Positions 1,222-17,556 of a stretch of DNA of 64,000 bases are shown here, in pieces. The position numbers and the translations under genes are program-made. The notes under the pieces were generated by a model. The model ran no database searches and was not told where the DNA came from. It worked only from the letters and a program-made list of their open reading frames with translations. The DNA lies in sequence record PX421306.1. One strand, given 5' to 3'. The DNA is from a phage. Every line of letters starts with the position of its first letter. Within the stretch, counting starts at the first letter, position 1.

Positions 1222-1608
1222 TTATTCGAGGGAAAGAAGATATTTACTTTGATAAAACATCCCAGTAATATCATCTATCGTGCTTTGAATGGCTGGAGGC
1301 ATTTCTTTATAAATGCTGTTAGATTGGTCTAGTATGCGATCAATCATTTTAATTGTGTCGGTAGGAAGTTTACTAGCATCTGGAATTGAAGGTGTATATT
1401 TTCTACCAGAATACCCTAAATATTGCTCACCAAATTTATCAATCAAATCTGGCAACTCAGAGAAAATAAAATCGTATGCCTTGTGTCTAGCATAACTTTT
1501 AGTTTCAAAATGCGCAGAATGAAAATAAGCTTGTGCAGCCATTAATAAACCTAAGTATTCATCTGCCTTTGAAGGTTTTCCACTTTGTGAAAAGTCGCTG
1601 AATTTCAT
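1222..1608 (-). CDS. hypothetical protein downstream of rI
   Basis: 128-aa ORF; stop followed by hairpin-T terminator at 1193-1216; 4-nt overlap with rI. Confidence 0.6.
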
Positions 1609-1898
1609 TCAGTCTCCAATTTAATGTTCATAATTCTAGCGTATGATTGTGCCATCTCCGCGCCTCGCTCTATACATTCAAAATCGGAAGAGCACGGGTC
1701 ATTTTTATAAGTCGTTCGCATAAAACTATAGAACTGTTCAGATGATTCTACGCTTTTATTTTCAAAAAGCATATAAACATGTCTAATGCCAGATTCCATA
1801 AATTTATCAAAATGAGGATCGACATTTGCTTCAATCGGTGGAGATAAAGCAAACGCTAATCCTAGCATGGCAAATAGTGCCGTTGCTTTTAAGGCCAT
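1605..1898 (-). CDS. rI: lysis inhibition regulator RI (periplasmic antiholin)
   Basis: 97 aa with N-terminal signal/SAR segment MALKATALFAMLGLAFALS; matches T4 RI as I recall it, in length and sequence. Confidence 0.88.
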   Translation of the reverse strand: MALKATALFAMLGLAFALSPPIEANVDPHFDKFMESGIRHVYMLFENKSVESSEQFYSFMRTTYKNDPCSSDFECIERGAEMAQSYARIMNIKLETE

Positions 1899-2123: not shown

Positions 2124-2165
2124 ATATACCCCTTTAGTTAGATAAACCTATTTATAACTTTTGCA

Positions 2166-2747
2166 CTAACCGAGCTTTTTAGTTAATTCATTCCAATGTT
2201 TTCTGCACAAAGAAACATAAATTTCATCACCAATACAGATTTGATTACCTTCTTTAACTGGTGTTCCATCTTCCATTAATCGAGCTGTCATAATCGCTTT
2301 TTTACCACAATGACAAACTGCTTTTAGTTCAATAAGTTTATCTGCAATCGCCAAAAGTTCTTTAGAACCTTCAAATAATTTTCCAGCGAAATCAGTCCTT
2401 AGTCCATAAGCCATAACAGGAACATTGTATGTATCGACAATTCGGCTTAATTGATGCACCTGTTCAGTTTTTAAAAACTGAGCTTCATCTACAAATACGC
2501 AATGAATATCTTTTTGTGCTTCAGCCCATTTATAGAACTCAAAAATATCCATATCATCCGTAATAATATTCGCTTCCTGTTTAATTCCAATGCGAGAAAC
2601 GACTTCACAGACAGAATCGCGAGTATCAATAGCAGGTTTAAGAACTAATACACCCATTCCGCGTTCTTTATAATTATGCGCAGCAGTCAAAAGAGAAGCA
2701 GATTTTCCAGCATTCATTGCTGCATAAGTAAAAATTAAACTCGCCAT
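2166..2747 (-). CDS. tk: thymidine kinase
   Basis: 193 aa; P-loop NAGKSASLL, FVDEAQF and C-terminal CxxC...CxxH zinc ribbon typical of type II thymidine kinase. Confidence 0.95.
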   Translation of the reverse strand: MASLIFTYAAMNAGKSASLLTAAHNYKERGMGVLVLKPAIDTRDSVCEVVSRIGIKQEANIITDDMDIFEFYKWAEAQKDIHCVFVDEAQFLKTEQVHQLSRIVDTYNVPVMAYGLRTDFAGKLFEGSKELLAIADKLIELKAVCHCGKKAIMTARLMEDGTPVKEGNQICIGDEIYVSLCRKHWNELTKKLG

Positions 2748-2756
2748 ATCACCTTC

Positions 2757-2942
2757 TTAAAGCGTATTCACATAATCTATTAATTCGTTTTCTTTCTTAT
2801 CAAACCGGTCAGCAAATTCTTCTTGCTGTTCGGGAGATAGCGGGCCGTATTCATCATAAAAGGTGTTTGCTTCTGTATGCTCATCTAGAAGTTCATGGAT
2901 AAGCTCAAACAATTTATCTTTTTGTTCTTTGCTTAGGCTCAC
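2757..2942 (-). CDS. hypothetical acidic protein
   Basis: 61-aa ORF immediately downstream of tk. Confidence 0.5.
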   Translation of the reverse strand: MSLSKEQKDKLFELIHELLDEHTEANTFYDEYGPLSPEQQEEFADRFDKKENELIDYVNTL

Positions 2943-3111
2943 AGTATGTTAATCCCCAAAAGTTTTAAAATGACTCGTTTCTGATTCATAACCGCTACGA
3001 TTGAATGACCGTTGGGGTCTTTTTGACCCGATCCAATTATAAATCCTTTTTGTGCAGAAAGTTCAATCAAAACATCAAGTTCACGTAATAATTGATATTT
3101 TAAATCATCAT

Positions 3112-3318
3112 TCATTTTGGTTTACCTTCTTTAACGAAATCAGGATAAGGATAAAATCCTGAATAAAATCCTTCACCTTTATGATTGATGCATCCTTTAT
3201 TAGAACAATAGCACCAATAATCGAAATCACAAGCCATTTCATCATTACATAAAGCAAAAACAACAGGCCATTTACACTTTTCACAATGGGCATTTTTAAG
3301 AATACTAGTTTGGCTCAT
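3112..3318 (-). CDS. hypothetical Cys-rich small protein (possible zinc binding)
   Basis: Start set at ATG 3318 (MSQTSIL...) forming ATGA overlap with upstream stop; many Cys/His (HCEKCKW...CNDEMACDFDYWCYCSNKGC). Confidence 0.5.
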   Translation of the reverse strand: MSQTSILKNAHCEKCKWPVVFALCNDEMACDFDYWCYCSNKGCINHKGEGFYSGFYPYPDFVKEGKPK

Positions 3319-3527
3319 AACCATGTAACCTTTAAGCAATATTCTTCTACATGTTGTTTACGACCTTTCCTATCAATAAAGGTATATTCAACGAATGTTC
3401 CAATATAGTCTTTATCTACATCATGAGGACTATTAATTGGGCATTTAGTACGGCAAATGCGTTCCCATTGACGAATAATTTCTGCTTTGTTTTTAGGATC
3501 AAACGGATGCGGGTAATGTACTTTCAT
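3315..3527 (-). CDS. hypothetical protein
   Basis: 70-aa ORF, overlaps neighbours in the polycistronic early array. Confidence 0.5.
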   Translation of the reverse strand: MKVHYPHPFDPKNKAEIIRQWERICRTKCPINSPHDVDKDYIGTFVEYTFIDRKGRKQHVEEYCLKVTWL

Positions 3528-3978
3528 AATCCACCACTATCAAATCAATATCAGGAGTAAACATGTCGATTAATTTAGAAACCTTATCCCAATCACCGCC
3601 AGCAATACCACAACCTATGCGTGGAATGTAAATTACTGGTTTAAACAAAAGGGTCTCTGCCTGTAGATTTAATTCTATCATGCAGTTTACTAAAGCACCA
3701 TAATCAAGATTAGGACCCGGTTCGTATTGCGTATAAAGGTTATAGCATATACCAAATCCTGTAGGACTGTGTTTAAAAACAATAGACATATCGCCTAATT
3801 TATCACGAGAACCGTACTCGGTAGTGGTTTTATCTATTTCTAAAATTTTGGGATAGGCTTTTGCTAATTGACCTGCTACGCCAGAGCCCATTGTGTGGAA
3901 GCAATTGCACCCGTGCGCAATAATATTACCTTGAAGAAATAGGGCGACAATATCGCCCTTGATATATTTTACAATCAT
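3499..3978 (-). CDS. macro-domain protein (putative ADP-ribose binding/hydrolase)
   Basis: 159 aa; motifs IKGDI, HGCNCFHTMGSGVAGQL and IPRIGCGIAGG resemble macro-domain signatures; ATGA overlap with upstream gene. Confidence 0.65.
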   Translation of the reverse strand: MIVKYIKGDIVALFLQGNIIAHGCNCFHTMGSGVAGQLAKAYPKILEIDKTTTEYGSRDKLGDMSIVFKHSPTGFGICYNLYTQYEPGPNLDYGALVNCMIELNLQAETLLFKPVIYIPRIGCGIAGGDWDKVSKLIDMFTPDIDLIVVDYESTLPASV

Positions 3979-4316
3979 CTAGTACTCAATCCTCGATTAT
4001 AAGAATCTACTAAACGGTCAACCATTGAATGACAAGCGGCTTTATCTTTCTCCTCCGCAACTGAACATTCTAAGGTATTCCACTTTTTAGCATATCGTTT
4101 TAATAAAGTATCGTTCTTGTATCTGCTTGATTTATCTCTTTCTCCGTCTTTATATGCATATATTAATTTCTGCGCAAATTCAGCTTGGCATGCTTTATTT
4201 TTCCCACAATAATCCGCGGCAGTACGGTTTACATACTCTCTAACTTCAGAATATGATATATCTGCTAACGCAGAAAATGAAATTAATCCTACACATAAAA
4301 CCAAAATTTTAGTCAT
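3975..4316 (-). CDS. secreted small protein (signal peptide), function unknown
   Basis: 113 aa; N-terminal MTKILVLCVGLISFSALA signal-like segment, several Cys. Confidence 0.6.
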   Translation of the reverse strand: MTKILVLCVGLISFSALADISYSEVREYVNRTAADYCGKNKACQAEFAQKLIYAYKDGERDKSSRYKNDTLLKRYAKKWNTLECSVAEEKDKAACHSMVDRLVDSYNRGLSTR

Positions 4317-4854
4317 TTACTATTTCCAACAGTTTATTATTTTTAAGGTAGTTAGCCTTTTCTAGGACTTCAGAAGCATATTTAGAACCTGCTTTAACAT
4401 TCCATCCCGAATTATAAGAGGATATTGCCTTTCTTATATCGCCCTTATGTATATTTAACCAATAAGAAAGTTCAATGTACGCCCAGGAAGCTGAATTGGA
4501 CCGTTTATTCAACATTCTTTTTATTTCGGCATCGGTCATATTATAACCAAGTTCCTTAACTCTTGCACGCATGGTTGGCAAATAATTTTGGAACATTCCG
4601 TAGGCATGATGTTTTGGTTTAGATTTTAAATTAACTCCGGCAGAGCTTTCTTGCCATAAAATGGCAGCCATTATATGACCTAATCCGCTCTTGTGGATAT
4701 TTTTGTGTGTTTTATATTTTCCATCCTTAGAAAATTGTTCCCCGAATTGATACGCGTAACGCATGTTATCGAGTTGGACATTACTGAAAGTATGCTCGGA
4801 GCTATGTGCCATCATAGAAATGGCCAATAGACCAGCGAGTAGTGCTTTTCTCAT
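4309..4854 (-). CDS. secreted lytic-transglycosylase-like protein
   Basis: 181 aa; signal peptide MRKALLAGLLAISMMAHS; ES...GMFQ...YNSG motif arrangement like SLT-domain murein transglycosylases. Confidence 0.6.
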   Translation of the reverse strand: MRKALLAGLLAISMMAHSSEHTFSNVQLDNMRYAYQFGEQFSKDGKYKTHKNIHKSGLGHIMAAILWQESSAGVNLKSKPKHHAYGMFQNYLPTMRARVKELGYNMTDAEIKRMLNKRSNSASWAYIELSYWLNIHKGDIRKAISSYNSGWNVKAGSKYASEVLEKANYLKNNKLLEIVND

Positions 4855-4861
4855 GCTTACC

Positions 4862-5323
4862 TCATTGAGTTTTAATTACTGCTTTAGAAGCCTTTCCTGG
4901 TAAACGACGACTGTTAATAATTGCCATCCTGCACTGAAGCGACGGGTCTTTGAACTTCGCATTAGGTTTACAAACTGTAAATCCAAGCCAAAGATTTCCA
5001 TCTGTGATTTCTAAACGTCCAGGACGATATTCAATCCCATCAATAAAATCCTCGTCAATGTCAGGACGCGGAGGCATACTCAGGAATTCATTAACTTCTA
5101 AAACATGGTCTTTTATTTTATGGAATAATTCAAAAACATATGTCTCATCAATCTCCCGTTGAATTGCACGATCAAGAAGATGTTGAGAATATTTTAGATG
5201 AAACGATGAGACCCCTGCTGCTTTTGATGCCTCACGAATCTCATTGTTAATTTGACGAAACTCCGACTCAAAGTGACGACGGAGCTTATTTCGACGGATA
5301 AAAACTTCTGTGTTGATAGTCAT
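4862..5323 (-). CDS. regB: RegB site-specific endoribonuclease
   Basis: 153 aa; translation matches T4 RegB as I recall it (MTINTEVFIRRNKLRRHFESEFRQ...). Confidence 0.92.
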   Translation of the reverse strand: MTINTEVFIRRNKLRRHFESEFRQINNEIREASKAAGVSSFHLKYSQHLLDRAIQREIDETYVFELFHKIKDHVLEVNEFLSMPPRPDIDEDFIDGIEYRPGRLEITDGNLWLGFTVCKPNAKFKDPSLQCRMAIINSRRLPGKASKAVIKTQ

Positions 5324-5344
5324 GTTATTCTCCTCTTAACTGAT

Positions 5345-5385
5345 AGAAAAATTATACCACAGTCAAGAGGAAAAGTAAACAGTTA
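5345..5385 (-). promoter_or_regulatory. early-type promoter upstream of regB
   Basis: Minus-strand GTTTAC (5375-5380) and TATAAT (5351-5356) with 18-nt spacer. Confidence 0.55.
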
Positions 5386-5661
5386 TTCTTTAAATCTAAT
5401 CAATTTATTCATAGACTTTGAAACTTCTGCACGAACCTCATGTAGGTTTTTGAGCTGTTCAAGACGTTGCTCATAGTAAGCAATTTCATCTTCTTCGAGA
5501 CAGTCCTGTGAATCTTCTTTTAGATAACGCGCATAGTCCTGGAAAGCTTTACGGACTACTTCCTGGAAGTCATCAAGACTTTGAATTTTCTTAGGAGCAA
5601 CAGATACACGACGAGGGGCAGTATAATACTCATAACCAAACCCTGCGCTTAATTGAGCCAT
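5383..5661 (-). CDS. hypothetical protein
   Basis: Start moved to ATG 5661 (MAQLSAG...) giving TAATG overlap with upstream stop. Confidence 0.5.
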
Positions 5662-5927
5662 TAATATTTTTCCTCTGGTTGGAACACAGCACGACAAGCC
5701 CACATACTGGCTTCTTTGAGTTTCGTTTTAGCAATAGTTAACTGATCAAGACTTTCAGCATAATTCTTCGCGAATTCACAGTCTTCACAATTATCTAGTG
5801 CTTCCCAGAATTCATCATATAAAGCATCAAAGATAAGTCCTAAACGAACTTCAGCATCTTTGATAGCATTCACTTTACCGATTTTCTCTTCAGTGTGCGG
5901 CTTATAACCCTTAATATCTTCAATCAT
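5661..5927 (-). CDS. hypothetical protein
   Basis: 88-aa ORF in coupled early array. Confidence 0.5.
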
Positions 5928-6141
5928 ATTCTACTTCCTCACCAGTACATAAATCATATTCAACTAAACGAATAGGTTCATGAATGCCATATCCCTGAAC
6001 AGAAATTTCTGTCGTAGGATAAATTCCATCAATATCACCCATATTCCATGCTTCATTAAATTGCTGTTCGCCTGAATTACTAAACCACTCGGCGAAAGCA
6101 TTTAGCACATCTTTAGAACCTTCAATAATTATCTTTGCCAT
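5920..6141 (-). CDS. hypothetical protein
   Basis: 73-aa ORF; start overlaps stop of upstream gene by 1 nt. Confidence 0.5.
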   Translation of the reverse strand: MAKIIIEGSKDVLNAFAEWFSNSGEQQFNEAWNMGDIDGIYPTTEISVQGYGIHEPIRLVEYDLCTGEEVEYD

Positions 6142-6515
6142 TACAGACTCTCGGTAAAGGTACGAGCGATAACGTCGCGCTGCTGTTCCGGAGTCAGAGA
6201 GTTAAAGCGAACTGCATAACCGGATACACGGATGGTCAGCTGCGGATATTTTTCTGGATGCTTAACTGCATCTTCCAGAGTTTCACGGCGCAGAACGTTA
6301 ACGTTCAGGTGTTGACCACCTTCAATTTTAACTGTAGGTTGTGTTTCAATTTCAATTTCACGGGCATGCAAACCGTAGAAAATTTCTGGGTCTACAAAAG
6401 AGTCCTCTTTAAAGGTTTTAGAGACAATAATTCGTGCTTGAATACCGTCTTCAAAATAAATAGTACCTTTATGCGTGCCTTCAAGAATTTGATATGCTTT
6501 CATATAACCTCTCAA
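6141..6515 (-). CDS. autonomous glycyl-radical cofactor (GrcA/YfiD-like, T4 Y06I-like)
   Basis: 124 aa; C-terminal RVSGYAVRF glycyl-radical motif as in pyruvate formate-lyase C-terminus and GrcA. Confidence 0.75.
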
Positions 6516-6838
6516 TTAGAAAATAAATTTATCCAAGACTGTTCTTTAATTAAAAATGGCTCAGAATCATATGCCATTAAACTTTGGGTGATTAGTCCTT
6601 TAAAAGGTCCATCAATAAATTCCATGGTAAAATATGGAATTTTATTCATTAATCTTGCATTAGGAGCAGTGCACAAAACTCTGCATCCTTTGAATACGCC
6701 TTTTTGTAATTTGTATTGCTTAGGATAAAATTCGCTCAAGACGTTATTATTTGCCAAAATTTCAAAATGATTCACCAATTTATTTTTAATAGTTTTTGGC
6801 GAAAAATAAAGATATTCGAAAAGTTGCGTGTCTGTCAT
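6512..6838 (-). CDS. hypothetical protein
   Basis: Start moved to ATG 6838 (MTDTQ...) overlapping upstream stop (TAATG); ATGA overlap with downstream gene. Confidence 0.5.
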
Positions 6839-7377
6839 CATTGCATTCCGATTATGAAAAACTGTGGACGAGTAATACCACCAATGCAGCATTTACTATT
6901 GCAACAGTGGTGCACAGTTTCAATATGAATATCGTAAATTTTATCCATATCAGGAGATTTAACAGGCTCATCGATTATATACAAAATCCGCGAAAGCGAT
7001 AAACCTCTGAACTTGCTTCCTTTATTACCGATAAAACTACGGACAGAATCGGTAAATAAGCGGAATCGAATATCATCGCCAGAATAACGAGAAAATTCTT
7101 TTTTAATGTGGCCCGCAGAAATTTTAGCGTAAGCTGAAGTATTAGAAAGAACAATAACTGTTCCACCGTCATATAACCAATTAGCGGCAAAATTAGTTAC
7201 TGCAGTTGATTTACCGGATTGACGTCCACCATCTAAACGAAGTGTGCAATACTGCTTAAGTAAGTCTTCAAATGGTGGGATATAATCGTTTTTACAAATT
7301 TCTTCTACTCTAGCATCAGAATGGTGTGTAAAAGCATTCATCAGGGATAGATAAGGACCAGTTAAAAATGTTCTCAT
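6838..7377 (-). CDS. P-loop NTPase-like protein
   Basis: Walker A-like GGRQSGKST; start set at ATG 7377 (MRTFLTG...) with purine-rich RBS; 5' extent uncertain. Confidence 0.5.
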   Translation of the reverse strand: MRTFLTGPYLSLMNAFTHHSDARVEEICKNDYIPPFEDLLKQYCTLRLDGGRQSGKSTAVTNFAANWLYDGGTVIVLSNTSAYAKISAGHIKKEFSRYSGDDIRFRLFTDSVRSFIGNKGSKFRGLSLSRILYIIDEPVKSPDMDKIYDIHIETVHHCCNSKCCIGGITRPQFFIIGMQ

Positions 7378-7517
7378 TTTATTCTCTCTAAATTTGGGCC
7401 ATTCCATGGCGCATGAATTGTCCATTTCTGTATTTACCCATTACCGCACTTGGGCTCGACCTTATTACAGGTTGGCGGAATCCCTCACAGAATCATGAGG
7501 TCCAGGTTGTTCCCATA

Positions 7518-7991
7518 TTATTTGAATGATTTGACGTACTGAATAGAACCTTTACTATTCACGAAAGCGATTTTACCATTCTTATTATACATGGTAGCAG
7601 TACGCTGATAGCCATAAGTTTGCTTACCGGATTGATAACCAACTAATGCGAAATTATCTTCACCCATTTTATTCTGTTTAGCACGAATACGTTCATGACC
7701 GTGTGCCATAAGAACCTTAGCATCACCAGTTGAAATTGATCTACGAGTTTTTTCATCTTCAACTGTATTAACAAAGTCGTCAAATGAATCAAATTTAGCA
7801 TGGGATTTATTATACAGTTTTCCATCTACTGCATAATTATATCCCTGTACATCCATCTCAACTTCTGTACCATCATCCAATACAGCAGTGATTTTTTGAC
7901 CTTTTTTAAATTTCAAAAGATCAGTAAAAGATTCAGCAATAATTTGAGAATTAATAGCTGCTTCAGTAATAAATTCTTGATATGTTTTCAT
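7518..7991 (-). CDS. internal head protein (IPIII-like, capsid-targeted)
   Basis: 157 aa; N-terminal MKTYQEFITEAA leader matching the T4 capsid targeting sequence cleaved by prohead protease after E. Confidence 0.75.
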   Translation of the reverse strand: MKTYQEFITEAAINSQIIAESFTDLLKFKKGQKITAVLDDGTEVEMDVQGYNYAVDGKLYNKSHAKFDSFDDFVNTVEDEKTRRSISTGDAKVLMAHGHERIRAKQNKMGEDNFALVGYQSGKQTYGYQRTATMYNKNGKIAFVNSKGSIQYVKSFK

Positions 7992-8005
7992 GTGTATCCT
8001 TTAAT

Positions 8006-8323
8006 TTATTCTTTAGGGAAGTTTTTAGAATATGCATCATAAAGCTTATTTCCAATACGGCGGAAAACTCTAGCCGCAAAACGATTTTCTGGGTTTTTAA
8101 TCATGATTTGCATCATATAAGTACCCGCGTCAGAAAGAGCTTCTTCATAGTACCCATTAATTTCTTTAAGAGTCCTACGTTTACCACCAGGACCATCAAC
8201 AGTAATTTTCCATTTACCTGTAGAAGTGCGGCTCGGTGGCTCAACTTGTTCAATCCAAATATAACCTCCTTCTACACGTTGTCCTTGGGCAGATTCTGCA
8301 ATAAATTCTTTATACGTTTTCAT
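8006..8323 (-). CDS. internal head protein (IPII-like, capsid-targeted)
   Basis: 105 aa; N-terminal MKTYKEFIAESA targeting leader. Confidence 0.75.
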   Translation of the reverse strand: MKTYKEFIAESAQGQRVEGGYIWIEQVEPPSRTSTGKWKITVDGPGGKRRTLKEINGYYEEALSDAGTYMMQIMIKNPENRFAARVFRRIGNKLYDAYSKNFPKE

Positions 8324-8332
8324 ATGTTTCCT

Positions 8333-8749
8333 TTAAATGTAAATATTTTTGCCGTAATACTTGTACCAGTGTGGCTTCATTAAAATTTTTTCATCGAGTC
8401 GTTGTTGACTCAATTTAATAGCTGATTTGCATGGATTATAATCATTTTTCCATTCTGCTGGAATATCACTGATGTCAGGAACTTCAGTATCTTTTATACT
8501 AAACCCACGTTTTAAGCATTCCGTTATAATGTCTGATTGACGCTTTCGCAAAAATTCTAACTTATCGTAAAAGAACGTAACATGACCAGAACCTAAAATA
8601 AACTCGGAAGATATTTTAAAATCTTTAACCCGCTTACCATTTGCCACGTGTTTACGAACTATACCAAAAACACGTGGCAATTCACGGTATTCTGCGATTA
8701 AATGCTGATCAGCAAGTTCAGATACTAAAGTCAAATTAATACGAGTCAT
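8333..8749 (-). CDS. denV: endonuclease V (pyrimidine dimer DNA glycosylase)
   Basis: 138 aa; [17 protein letters not shown]... closely matches T4 endonuclease V as recalled. Confidence 0.92.
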
Positions 8750-8769
8750 TTTATCCCTCCAAGTAACTG

Positions 8770-8805
8770 TGAATATACTATCACAATTCTAGGAGAAAGT
8801 AAACC
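8770..8805 (-). promoter_or_regulatory. early-type promoter upstream of denV
   Basis: Minus-strand GTTTAC (8799-8804) and ATAGTAT-like -10. Confidence 0.45.
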
Positions 8806-8808
8806 ACT

Positions 8809-9339
<531 letters not shown>

Positions 9340-17370: not shown

Positions 17371-17556
17371 CTATTCACCTTTAGAAATTTTATCCATAAC
17401 GATAGCAATTAAACCAATTAAAAATGCTACTACAAGTGAAAACACATTTTCTGCTGTAGTCAATAATCCGCATATAAATCCAACAAACATTGAAAAACTA
17501 AAAGCAGAAGCAGAAATTGCAATAGCAACATTTCGAATTAATTCACAGCGTTTCAT
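17371..17556 (-). CDS. small hydrophobic membrane protein
   Basis: 61 aa, mostly hydrophobic (two helices); early-type promoter upstream at about 17580-17620. Confidence 0.45.
   Translation of the reverse strand: MKRCELIRNVAIAISASAFSFSMFVGFICGLLTTAENVFSLVVAFLIGLIAIVMDKISKGE

Follow-up and report, generated by a model that had tools for sequence, protein, structure and literature searches.

Vs.1 and Vs of a T4-like phage: a predicted exported SLT-type enzyme and an adjoining signal-peptide protein encoded by a conserved early gene pair

We analysed a stretch of phage DNA of 64,000 nucleotides (record PX421306.1; hereafter the window, whose positions serve as coordinates throughout) and focus here on two adjoining genes on its minus strand, vs.1 (4309..4854) and vs (3975..4316). 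Our preferred reading, to which we assign a probability of about 0.68, is that the pair encodes an early, Sec-exported murein-cleaving enzyme (Vs.1) and a co-translated periplasmic disulfide protein (Vs), distinct from the phage endolysin. The observations behind it cover the identity, motifs, predicted fold and conservation of the genes and their products, as well as synteny and promoter context.

The window derives from a T4-like myovirus (Tequatrovirus), with the region 3400-5400 being ~98% identical to phages REP4 and PP01 and to many Tequatrovirus genomes. The open reading frame (ORF) at 4309-4854 encodes a precursor of 181 amino acids that is orthologous to T4 Vs.1 (NP_049725; UniProt P13311), to which it is identical at 180 of 181 residues, with G72A as the sole substitution, and it matches PHROG 600 (E=5.6e-69). 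ORF 3975-4316 encodes a precursor of 113 amino acids orthologous to T4 Vs (NP_049724; UniProt P13310), with 108 of 115 positions identical (94%) and a match to PHROG 1256, 'valyl tRNA synthetase modifier' (E=3.7e-39). As in T4, vs.1 lies between regB and vs; the genes around vs and its overlap with vs.1 are also those of T4. The two Vs.1 proteins are expected to function alike, while Vs departs from its T4 counterpart by a few substitutions and one indel, a two-residue deletion in the c-region of the signal peptide, these changes falling mostly in that region or around the predicted cleavage site. A first-pass annotation, made from the letters of the window, had given the coordinates of both ORFs exactly; the signal peptides, SLT-type enzyme and early expression that it proposed were supported, its remark that the genes lie far from the endolysin was overstated, and their identity as T4 vs.1 and vs had escaped it. 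The two ORFs as such are already known, being named T4 genes with a published and annotated domain match: the marginal SLT match of vs.1 orthologues in six T4-like genomes has been reported, with credit to earlier PSI-BLAST work (PMC1524935), and the SLT likeness of vs.1 is also written into several GenBank records.

The catalytic domain of Vs.1

The Pfam profile SLT (PF01464; lytic transglycosylase, GH23-like) matches residues 61-154 of Vs.1 (4393..4674, minus strand) with 23.4 bits (E=4.8e-5), above its gathering cut-off of 21.3, and it recognises 32 of 34 Vs.1 homologues at E<=0.01 (best 1.3e-7), in agreement with the SLT likeness that the first-pass annotation had drawn from an ES...GMFQ...YNSG arrangement. 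All parts of this arrangement are present, as E69-S70 (within LWQESS), G86-M-F-Q89 and S146-Y147-N-S-G150, and the codons for the predicted catalytic Glu69-Ser70 (GAA AGC) are read at 4645..4650 on the minus strand. Throughout the 34 homologues, which extend down to 42% identity, E69, G86, F88, Q89, Y147, N148 and G150 are invariant and S70 is nearly so. Homologues from Felixounavirus and Kuttervirus, at ~30% identity, still keep the E-S, GxFQ and YNxG motifs along with signal peptides. An AlphaFold2 model of Vs.1 built from the family alignment (predicted local distance difference test, pLDDT, 88.4) adopts a lysozyme-like all-alpha fold of the goose-type lysozyme/Slt70 kind, and its top Foldseek matches are lysozyme-superfamily folds, namely MltD, goose-type lysozyme, GH23 chitinase and Slt. 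Profile, motifs and model support the assignment of Vs.1 as an SLT/GH23-type enzyme, with activity being a prediction from sequence and fold.

Comparison with known murein enzymes places Vs.1 apart from each of them. Its identity to family 1 lytic transglycosylases (E. coli Slt70 and MltC/E; P. aeruginosa MltF, MltD and Slt) and to goose-type lysozymes is 13-21%, and unlike the Slt70 and Mlt enzymes it is phage-encoded, early-expressed and a bare catalytic domain of 163 residues, lacking a lipobox, the U/L superhelical domains, and LysM or ABC-type modules. In architecture, the closest working analogy is with small specialised transglycosylases of the EtgA/VirB1 type, which serve transport machines (the type III secretion system in the case of EtgA), although Vs.1 is encoded outside any secretion, pilus or flagellar cluster, with regB, vs, tk.4, tk and rI as its neighbours; no secretion or pilus genes were found in the phage loci examined, and a role of the EtgA/VirB1 type in an envelope-spanning machine is not indicated. 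Of T4's own proteins, gp e and gp5 are known to hydrolyse murein; both are T4-lysozyme-type (GH24) muramidases without a signal peptide, one acting at lysis and the other at infection, whereas Vs.1 is GH23-like, early and predicted to be exported.

Signal peptides, cysteines and the pairing of the two genes

Both precursors begin with a predicted signal peptide of 18 residues. In Vs.1 (4801..4854, minus strand), the sequence MRKALLAGLLAISMMAHS has a net charge of +2 in its first five residues, a hydrophobic core of 13 residues and A-x-S at positions -3/-1, with cleavage predicted before SEH, while in Vs (4263..4316, minus strand) the sequence MTKILVLCVGLISFSALA has A-x-A at -3/-1 and cleavage is predicted before DIS. 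These calls were made with a crude heuristic that combines n/h/c-region analysis with the (-3,-1) rule. Among 87 non-overlapping ORFs of the window it flags only four: vs.1, vs, rI and a hydrophobic ORF of 61 residues. The last of these (17371-17556, minus strand; MKRCELIRNVAIAISASAFSFSMFVGFICGLLTTA...) looks like a small membrane protein. All 34 Vs.1 homologues pass the heuristic, as do 63 of 72 full-length Vs-family clusters (pooled over all searches), where most failures are apparent signals missed by the rule or truncated gene calls. In both families, conservation is lowest at the N-terminus. Alignment of the 34 Vs.1 homologues shows a signal region that drifts in sequence and keeps its hydrophobic character, and in an alignment of 11 Vs sequences (24-94% identity) variability peaks in the first 20 residues, where indels also occur. 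The structural models concur, with low pLDDT for residues 1-20 of Vs.1 and an unstructured, low-confidence stretch for residues 1-19 of Vs. Two T4 proteins, rI and Spackle, reach the periplasm, and rI of the window is among the ORFs flagged by the heuristic.

The n/h/c features, the rarity of such N-termini in the window and their retention among homologues support the view, first raised in the first-pass annotation, that both proteins carry conserved Sec-type cleavable signal peptides, from which export is predicted. Cleavage would leave a mature Vs.1 of 163 residues (18.8 kDa, pI 9.65) beginning SEHTFSNVQLDNMR and a mature Vs of 95 residues (11.0 kDa, pI 8.9) beginning DISYSEVR here and DTSYTEIR in T4. 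Two other routes to the envelope were considered. On inspection, LVLC in Vs is not a lipobox, having Leu at position -1, and the lipoprotein reading was rejected; a signal-anchor-release type of export was judged unlikely for Vs.1, given a core of only ~13 residues and a good cleavage site.

Vs contains five cysteines, C8 in the signal peptide and C37, C43, C84 and C95 in the mature part, to which the count of four in the first-pass annotation correctly applies. A profile search of 5.8 billion proteins returned 75 clusters, all tagged PF26829; Vs belongs to this family by PHROG 1256 and by the precomputed PF26829 assignments of its homologues, and the six matches of the first search likewise carry PF26829, while three further cluster representatives, found in one separate search only, have no Pfam tag on record. 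The four cysteines are invariant in all 72 full-length clusters, with the spacing C-x5/6-C for one pair and mostly C-x8/10-C for the other, and they make up four of the ten invariant non-Met positions in the 11-sequence alignment. The Vs model (pLDDT 82.5) consists of a disordered N-terminus and four helices, with the cysteine pairs flanking the H1-H2 and H3-H4 loops, an arrangement that suggests two loop-closing disulfides, C37-C43 and C84-C95. Vs matched no known fold family and no Pfam family besides its own. It also had no profile or fold match to periplasmic inhibitors of lysozymes or lytic transglycosylases (Ivy, MliC/PliC, PliG and LprI/DUF1311). Nothing indicates for Vs a role like that of T4 Spackle, the inhibitor of gp5.

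The start of vs overlaps the end of vs.1 by 8 nucleotides (ATGACTAA; 4309..4316, minus strand), a junction read from the sequence that is compatible with translational coupling; vs has only a weak Shine-Dalgarno sequence. This arrangement is widely kept. In ten genera (Tequatrovirus, Dhakavirus, Marfavirus, Jiaodavirus, Lazarusvirus, Acajnonavirus, Gelderlandvirus, Roskildevirus, Muldoonvirus and Krischvirus) vs follows vs.1 directly, the junction ranging from -8 to +7 nucleotides, while the outer neighbours of the pair vary: regB or a homing endonuclease upstream, and tk.4, tk or another gene downstream. Four genera, represented by phages Mineola, Cronus, AC4 and Acj9, have a third signal-peptide protein after vs, and these third proteins are mutually homologous. 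They are ~130-140 residues long, have two conserved cysteines and 29-36% mutual identity, and are absent from the window and from T4; the loci are those of Klebsiella phage Mineola, Acinetobacter phages AC4 and Acj9, and Erwinia phage Cronus (L008:2863-3255, L009:2821-3246, L012:1737-2153 and L010:1857-2225). The Acj9 gene call starts MAWEQ, apparently too late.

By tblastn, the Vs.1 family was found in 2085 phage records (Straboviridae, Felixounavirus, Kuttervirus and others), and two divergent Vs queries gave 796 and 365 records, of which an unknown number is shared. Wherever they were examined, Vs.1 homologues lie in early or nucleotide-metabolism regions and never beside holin, spanin or endolysin genes. 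In Felixounavirus the homologue directly follows rIIA-rIIB (Escherichia phage tootiki, L002:4001-4549), and in Kuttervirus it follows gp46/47-like recombination nuclease genes (Salmonella phage heyday, L003:3953-4570). Both of these proteins, from outside Straboviridae, have signal peptides and intact E-S, GxFQN and YNAG motifs. Public records carry propagated annotation errors for both families: the labels 'RegB', 'endoribonuclease' and 'C-type lysozyme/alpha-lactalbumin' appear on Vs.1 homologues, Vs entries often read 'valyl-tRNA synthetase' with 'modifier' dropped, and vs is unannotated in Klebsiella phage vB_Kpn_F48 (L007:1974-2324). Defence/anti-defence and NCBIfam libraries gave zero matches for Vs.1 or Vs.

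Expression, fitness in T4 and genome setting

A putative sigma-70-like promoter with an extended -10 element (TTTACT-17-TG-TATAAT) was located upstream of regB by consensus scan (5351..5379, minus strand; 10/12 matches) and is the likely start of a regB-vs.1-vs-tk.4 transcript. Late-promoter motifs (TATAAATA) occur in two copies just upstream of e (9317-9337, minus strand) and in one copy upstream of rI.1/rI (2149-2156, minus strand); the block from vs.8 to tk lies between them, and a motif scan of the minus strand from 2156 to 9317 found none. Nor was a MotA-box middle-promoter pattern found upstream of vs.1 or vs. Data on timing, non-essentiality and fitness were all measured on T4 and are taken from the literature. 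There, vs.1 and vs belong to the early class by RNA and the middle class by protein, and both proteins have been detected (PMC9697503 supplement). Promoter context and T4 RNA class agree with the early expression claimed in the first-pass annotation and support a pre-replicative rather than late timing for both genes.

That annotation had further placed the pair far from the endolysin, tied it to rI and proposed a function distinct from end-of-cycle lysis. The first point is overstated, as the endolysin gene e (8809-9303, minus strand) is only 3.95 kb upstream of vs.1 on the same strand. As for the second, rI (1605-1898, minus strand; 97% identical to T4 rI) does run in the same direction, but 2.1 kb separate it from vs and it is preceded by a late-promoter motif of its own. 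Shared orientation is all that links rI and lysis inhibition with Vs.1 and Vs. In phage Acj9, rI is found two genes after vs. The third point is reasonable, in view of the pre-replicative expression and of homologues outside lysis cassettes in three phage groups. Vs.1 likewise does not fit the description of a phage endolysin, given its early context, its dispensability in T4 and its place outside lysis cassettes.

Fitness data come from the HIDEN-SEQ transposon screen of T4 (bioRxiv 10.1101/2025.11.20.689424), in which both genes are non-essential, with 30/32 and 46/52 TA sites hit in the two genes. In LB, insertions in vs.1 and vs nevertheless had ~10-40x fewer reads than those in neighbouring genes: one liquid-LB control gave 26.6 for vs and 22.6 for vs.1, compared with 290 for tk.4, 179 for regB and 652 for vs.3, and a second control pair gave 33.9 and 15.0. 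When M9 glucose was compared with LB, vs was the strongest hit of the same screen (log2 fold change -2.19, adjusted p reported as 0), and a clean vs knockout confirmed the M9 glucose defect, plaquing poorly; vs.1 showed the same trend (log2 fold change -0.87, p 0.0055, adjusted p 0.155). The shared defect could reflect a shared pathway.

On the minus strand the genes run in the order e, denV, two internal-protein-like ORFs, homologues of vs.8 to vs.3, regB, vs.1, vs, tk.4, tk.3 to tk.1, tk (2166-2747), rI.1 and rI. The upstream neighbour regB (4862..5323, minus strand; Pfam REGB_T4, E=1.6e-68) encodes an early endoribonuclease. The downstream neighbour tk.4 (3499..3978, minus strand; Pfam Macro, E=1.4e-7) encodes a macro-domain protein, and its start overlaps the vs stop by 4 nucleotides. 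T4 Tk.4 is reported to be the anti-DarTG2 factor AdfM (bioRxiv 10.1101/2025.11.20.689424), which places a gene for anti-defence immediately 3' of vs, inside the same tightly packed unit. Within the first codons of tk.4, 16 nucleotides past the vs stop, a perfect 8-bp stem with a 3-nucleotide loop (AGGGCGATATTGTCGCCCT; 3941-3959) was flagged as terminator-like on both strands, and it could be an element for RNA processing, attenuation or translational control between vs and tk.4. Further upstream, the ORFs at 7518-7991 and 8006-8323 (both minus strand) start with MKTYQEFITEAA and MKTYKEFIAESA, respectively, the capsid-targeting leader of T4 internal proteins. Apart from this leader they are unrelated to IPII/IPIII, and they lie downstream of denV, whereas the T4 locus is between denV and e; they resemble alternative internal-protein alleles whose locus has shifted.

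Compartment and role of the two proteins

We propose the following sequence of events for the pair. The regB-vs.1-vs-tk.4 unit would be transcribed before DNA replication, and the Vs.1 precursor (181 residues) would be exported by Sec and cut after Ala-His-Ser18. The mature product would be a basic 18.8-kDa single-domain SLT/GH23 enzyme (family 1 lytic transglycosylase, goose-lysozyme-like fold) with Glu69 as the putative catalytic acid/base, and in the periplasm it would most likely cut MurNAc-GlcNAc bonds of host murein in a limited, local and non-lytic manner. Such an enzyme would not be the endolysin, a role held by the late gene e, and would be dispensable for plaque formation. Vs would be translated from the start that overlaps the end of vs.1, and it too would most likely be exported and cut, after Ala-Leu-Ala18, to yield an 11-kDa four-helix protein with two predicted loop-closing disulfides (C37-C43 and C84-C95). 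Vs would share a compartment with Vs.1 and, probably, a pathway. What we infer here is export, enzymatic activity, disulfide formation and any functional link between Vs.1 and Vs, and candidate purposes of the cleavage may include wall remodelling during cell growth, turnover or recycling in poor medium, and preparation of the envelope for later events.

Several points weigh against this proposal. The Pfam SLT score of Vs.1 is only 2 bits above the cut-off and searches of PDB sequences with Vs.1, as a single sequence and as a profile, gave nothing significant; the SLT assignment therefore rests on profile, motifs and predicted fold. A literature search found no experiment that addressed the enzymatic activity or localisation of Vs.1 or of the product of this Vs ORF, and for experimental work on Vs.1 it returned only the 2006 comparative-genomics paper. 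Vs.1 is found without an adjacent Vs in the Aeromonas, Vibrio, Felixounavirus and Kuttervirus phages examined, so Vs is not an obligate partner and would be accessory to Vs.1 rather than the reverse. The fitness defect shared by the two genes may be due to polarity of vs.1 insertions on a translationally coupled vs. The four cysteines of Vs could in principle bind metal in a cytoplasmic protein. Lastly, the classical work on valyl-tRNA synthetase (ValRS) argues against export of Vs, provided that the genetic vs locus is this ORF. In studies by Neidhardt, Marchin, McClain et al. between 1966 and 1980, a vs-dependent T4 factor of ~10 kDa reportedly binds and stabilises the cytoplasmic ValRS in vivo, with reported in vivo consequences on valS(ts) hosts.

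From this last point follows the foremost alternative, in which Vs is a cytoplasmic ValRS-binding factor of 10-13 kDa, its N-terminus being no working signal or the pool being exported in part, and its place beside vs.1 being a matter of genomic inertia. T4 vs mutants are said, in the 1966-1980 literature, to fail to modify ValRS and to behave unlike the wild type on valS(ts) hosts, and the annotation stands in PHROG 1256 and in hundreds of GenBank records. The plaque defect on M9 glucose was read by the HIDEN-SEQ authors as nutrient- or translation-linked (bioRxiv 10.1101/2025.11.20.689424), and the formation of inclusion bodies by His-tagged Vs made in the cytoplasm is neutral. We nonetheless consider a cytoplasmic Vs doubtful: its signal peptide is canonical and retains its character while sequence and length drift, its four cysteines do not vary across the 72 clusters, the vs.1-vs junction persists in ten genera, Acinetobacter phages included, while the flanking genes change, and in four genera vs is followed by the gene for a third secreted protein. 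The evidence from sequence, synteny and conservation across the family points to a periplasmic Vs, at odds with the cytoplasmic textbook role, a conflict for which no discussion was found in the literature searched. A more specific form of the periplasmic reading, which we offer tentatively and hold to be rather unlikely as it stands, makes Vs a disulfide-bonded partner or regulator of Vs.1 within a conserved early envelope module, with the ValRS annotation being wrong or incomplete; the third secreted protein would join this module in some genera, and the module would matter most in poor host medium.

A second alternative concerns Vs.1, which might serve as an accessory lysis enzyme, that is, a second, Sec-exported endolysin for end-of-cycle lysis or for the collapse of lysis inhibition. 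SLT domains are common in phage lysins, the fold matches of Vs.1 include the lysins phiKZ gp144 and phi6 P5, some records call its homologues 'putative lysin', rI lies downstream in the same orientation (in Acj9, only two genes beyond vs), and a published comment grants it 'some role in cell lysis' (PMC1524935). The timing makes this improbable, with early RNA and middle protein in T4 and no late-promoter motif: with a cleavable signal, the enzyme would be free in the periplasm for many minutes ahead of lysis while the cell stays alive. In all phages examined the gene also sits outside holin/spanin/endolysin cassettes, and in T4 it is non-essential. T4 e mutants, moreover, are said not to lyse, which means that Vs.1 cannot replace the endolysin. 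A third alternative, in which Vs.1 is a catalytically dead or non-murein lysozyme-fold protein (peptidoglycan-binding or chitinase-like) and Vs an unrelated small envelope protein, could appeal to the marginal Pfam match and to good fold matches that include GH23 chitinase, GH124 cellulase and mannanase, but it is very improbable given that Glu-Ser, GxFQ and YNxG stay invariant to ~30% identity in three phage groups, as expected under purifying selection on an active site, and that the hosts have no periplasmic chitin or cellulose.

An early, exported Vs.1 with a periplasmic Vs remains the reading that we favour, and its main consequence concerns Vs. An ORF that is labelled a tRNA-synthetase modifier in hundreds of genomes looks like an exported disulfide protein, locked beside a predicted murein-cleaving enzyme in ten genera. 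If this is true, the 50-year-old assignment of the vs ORF to the ValRS-modifying factor would be wrong or incomplete. One outcome of resolving the mismatch would be the correction of a label now copied widely, together with a defined early phage function that acts on the cell wall; the other would be an account of how a cytoplasmic target is reached by a protein bearing a signal peptide.

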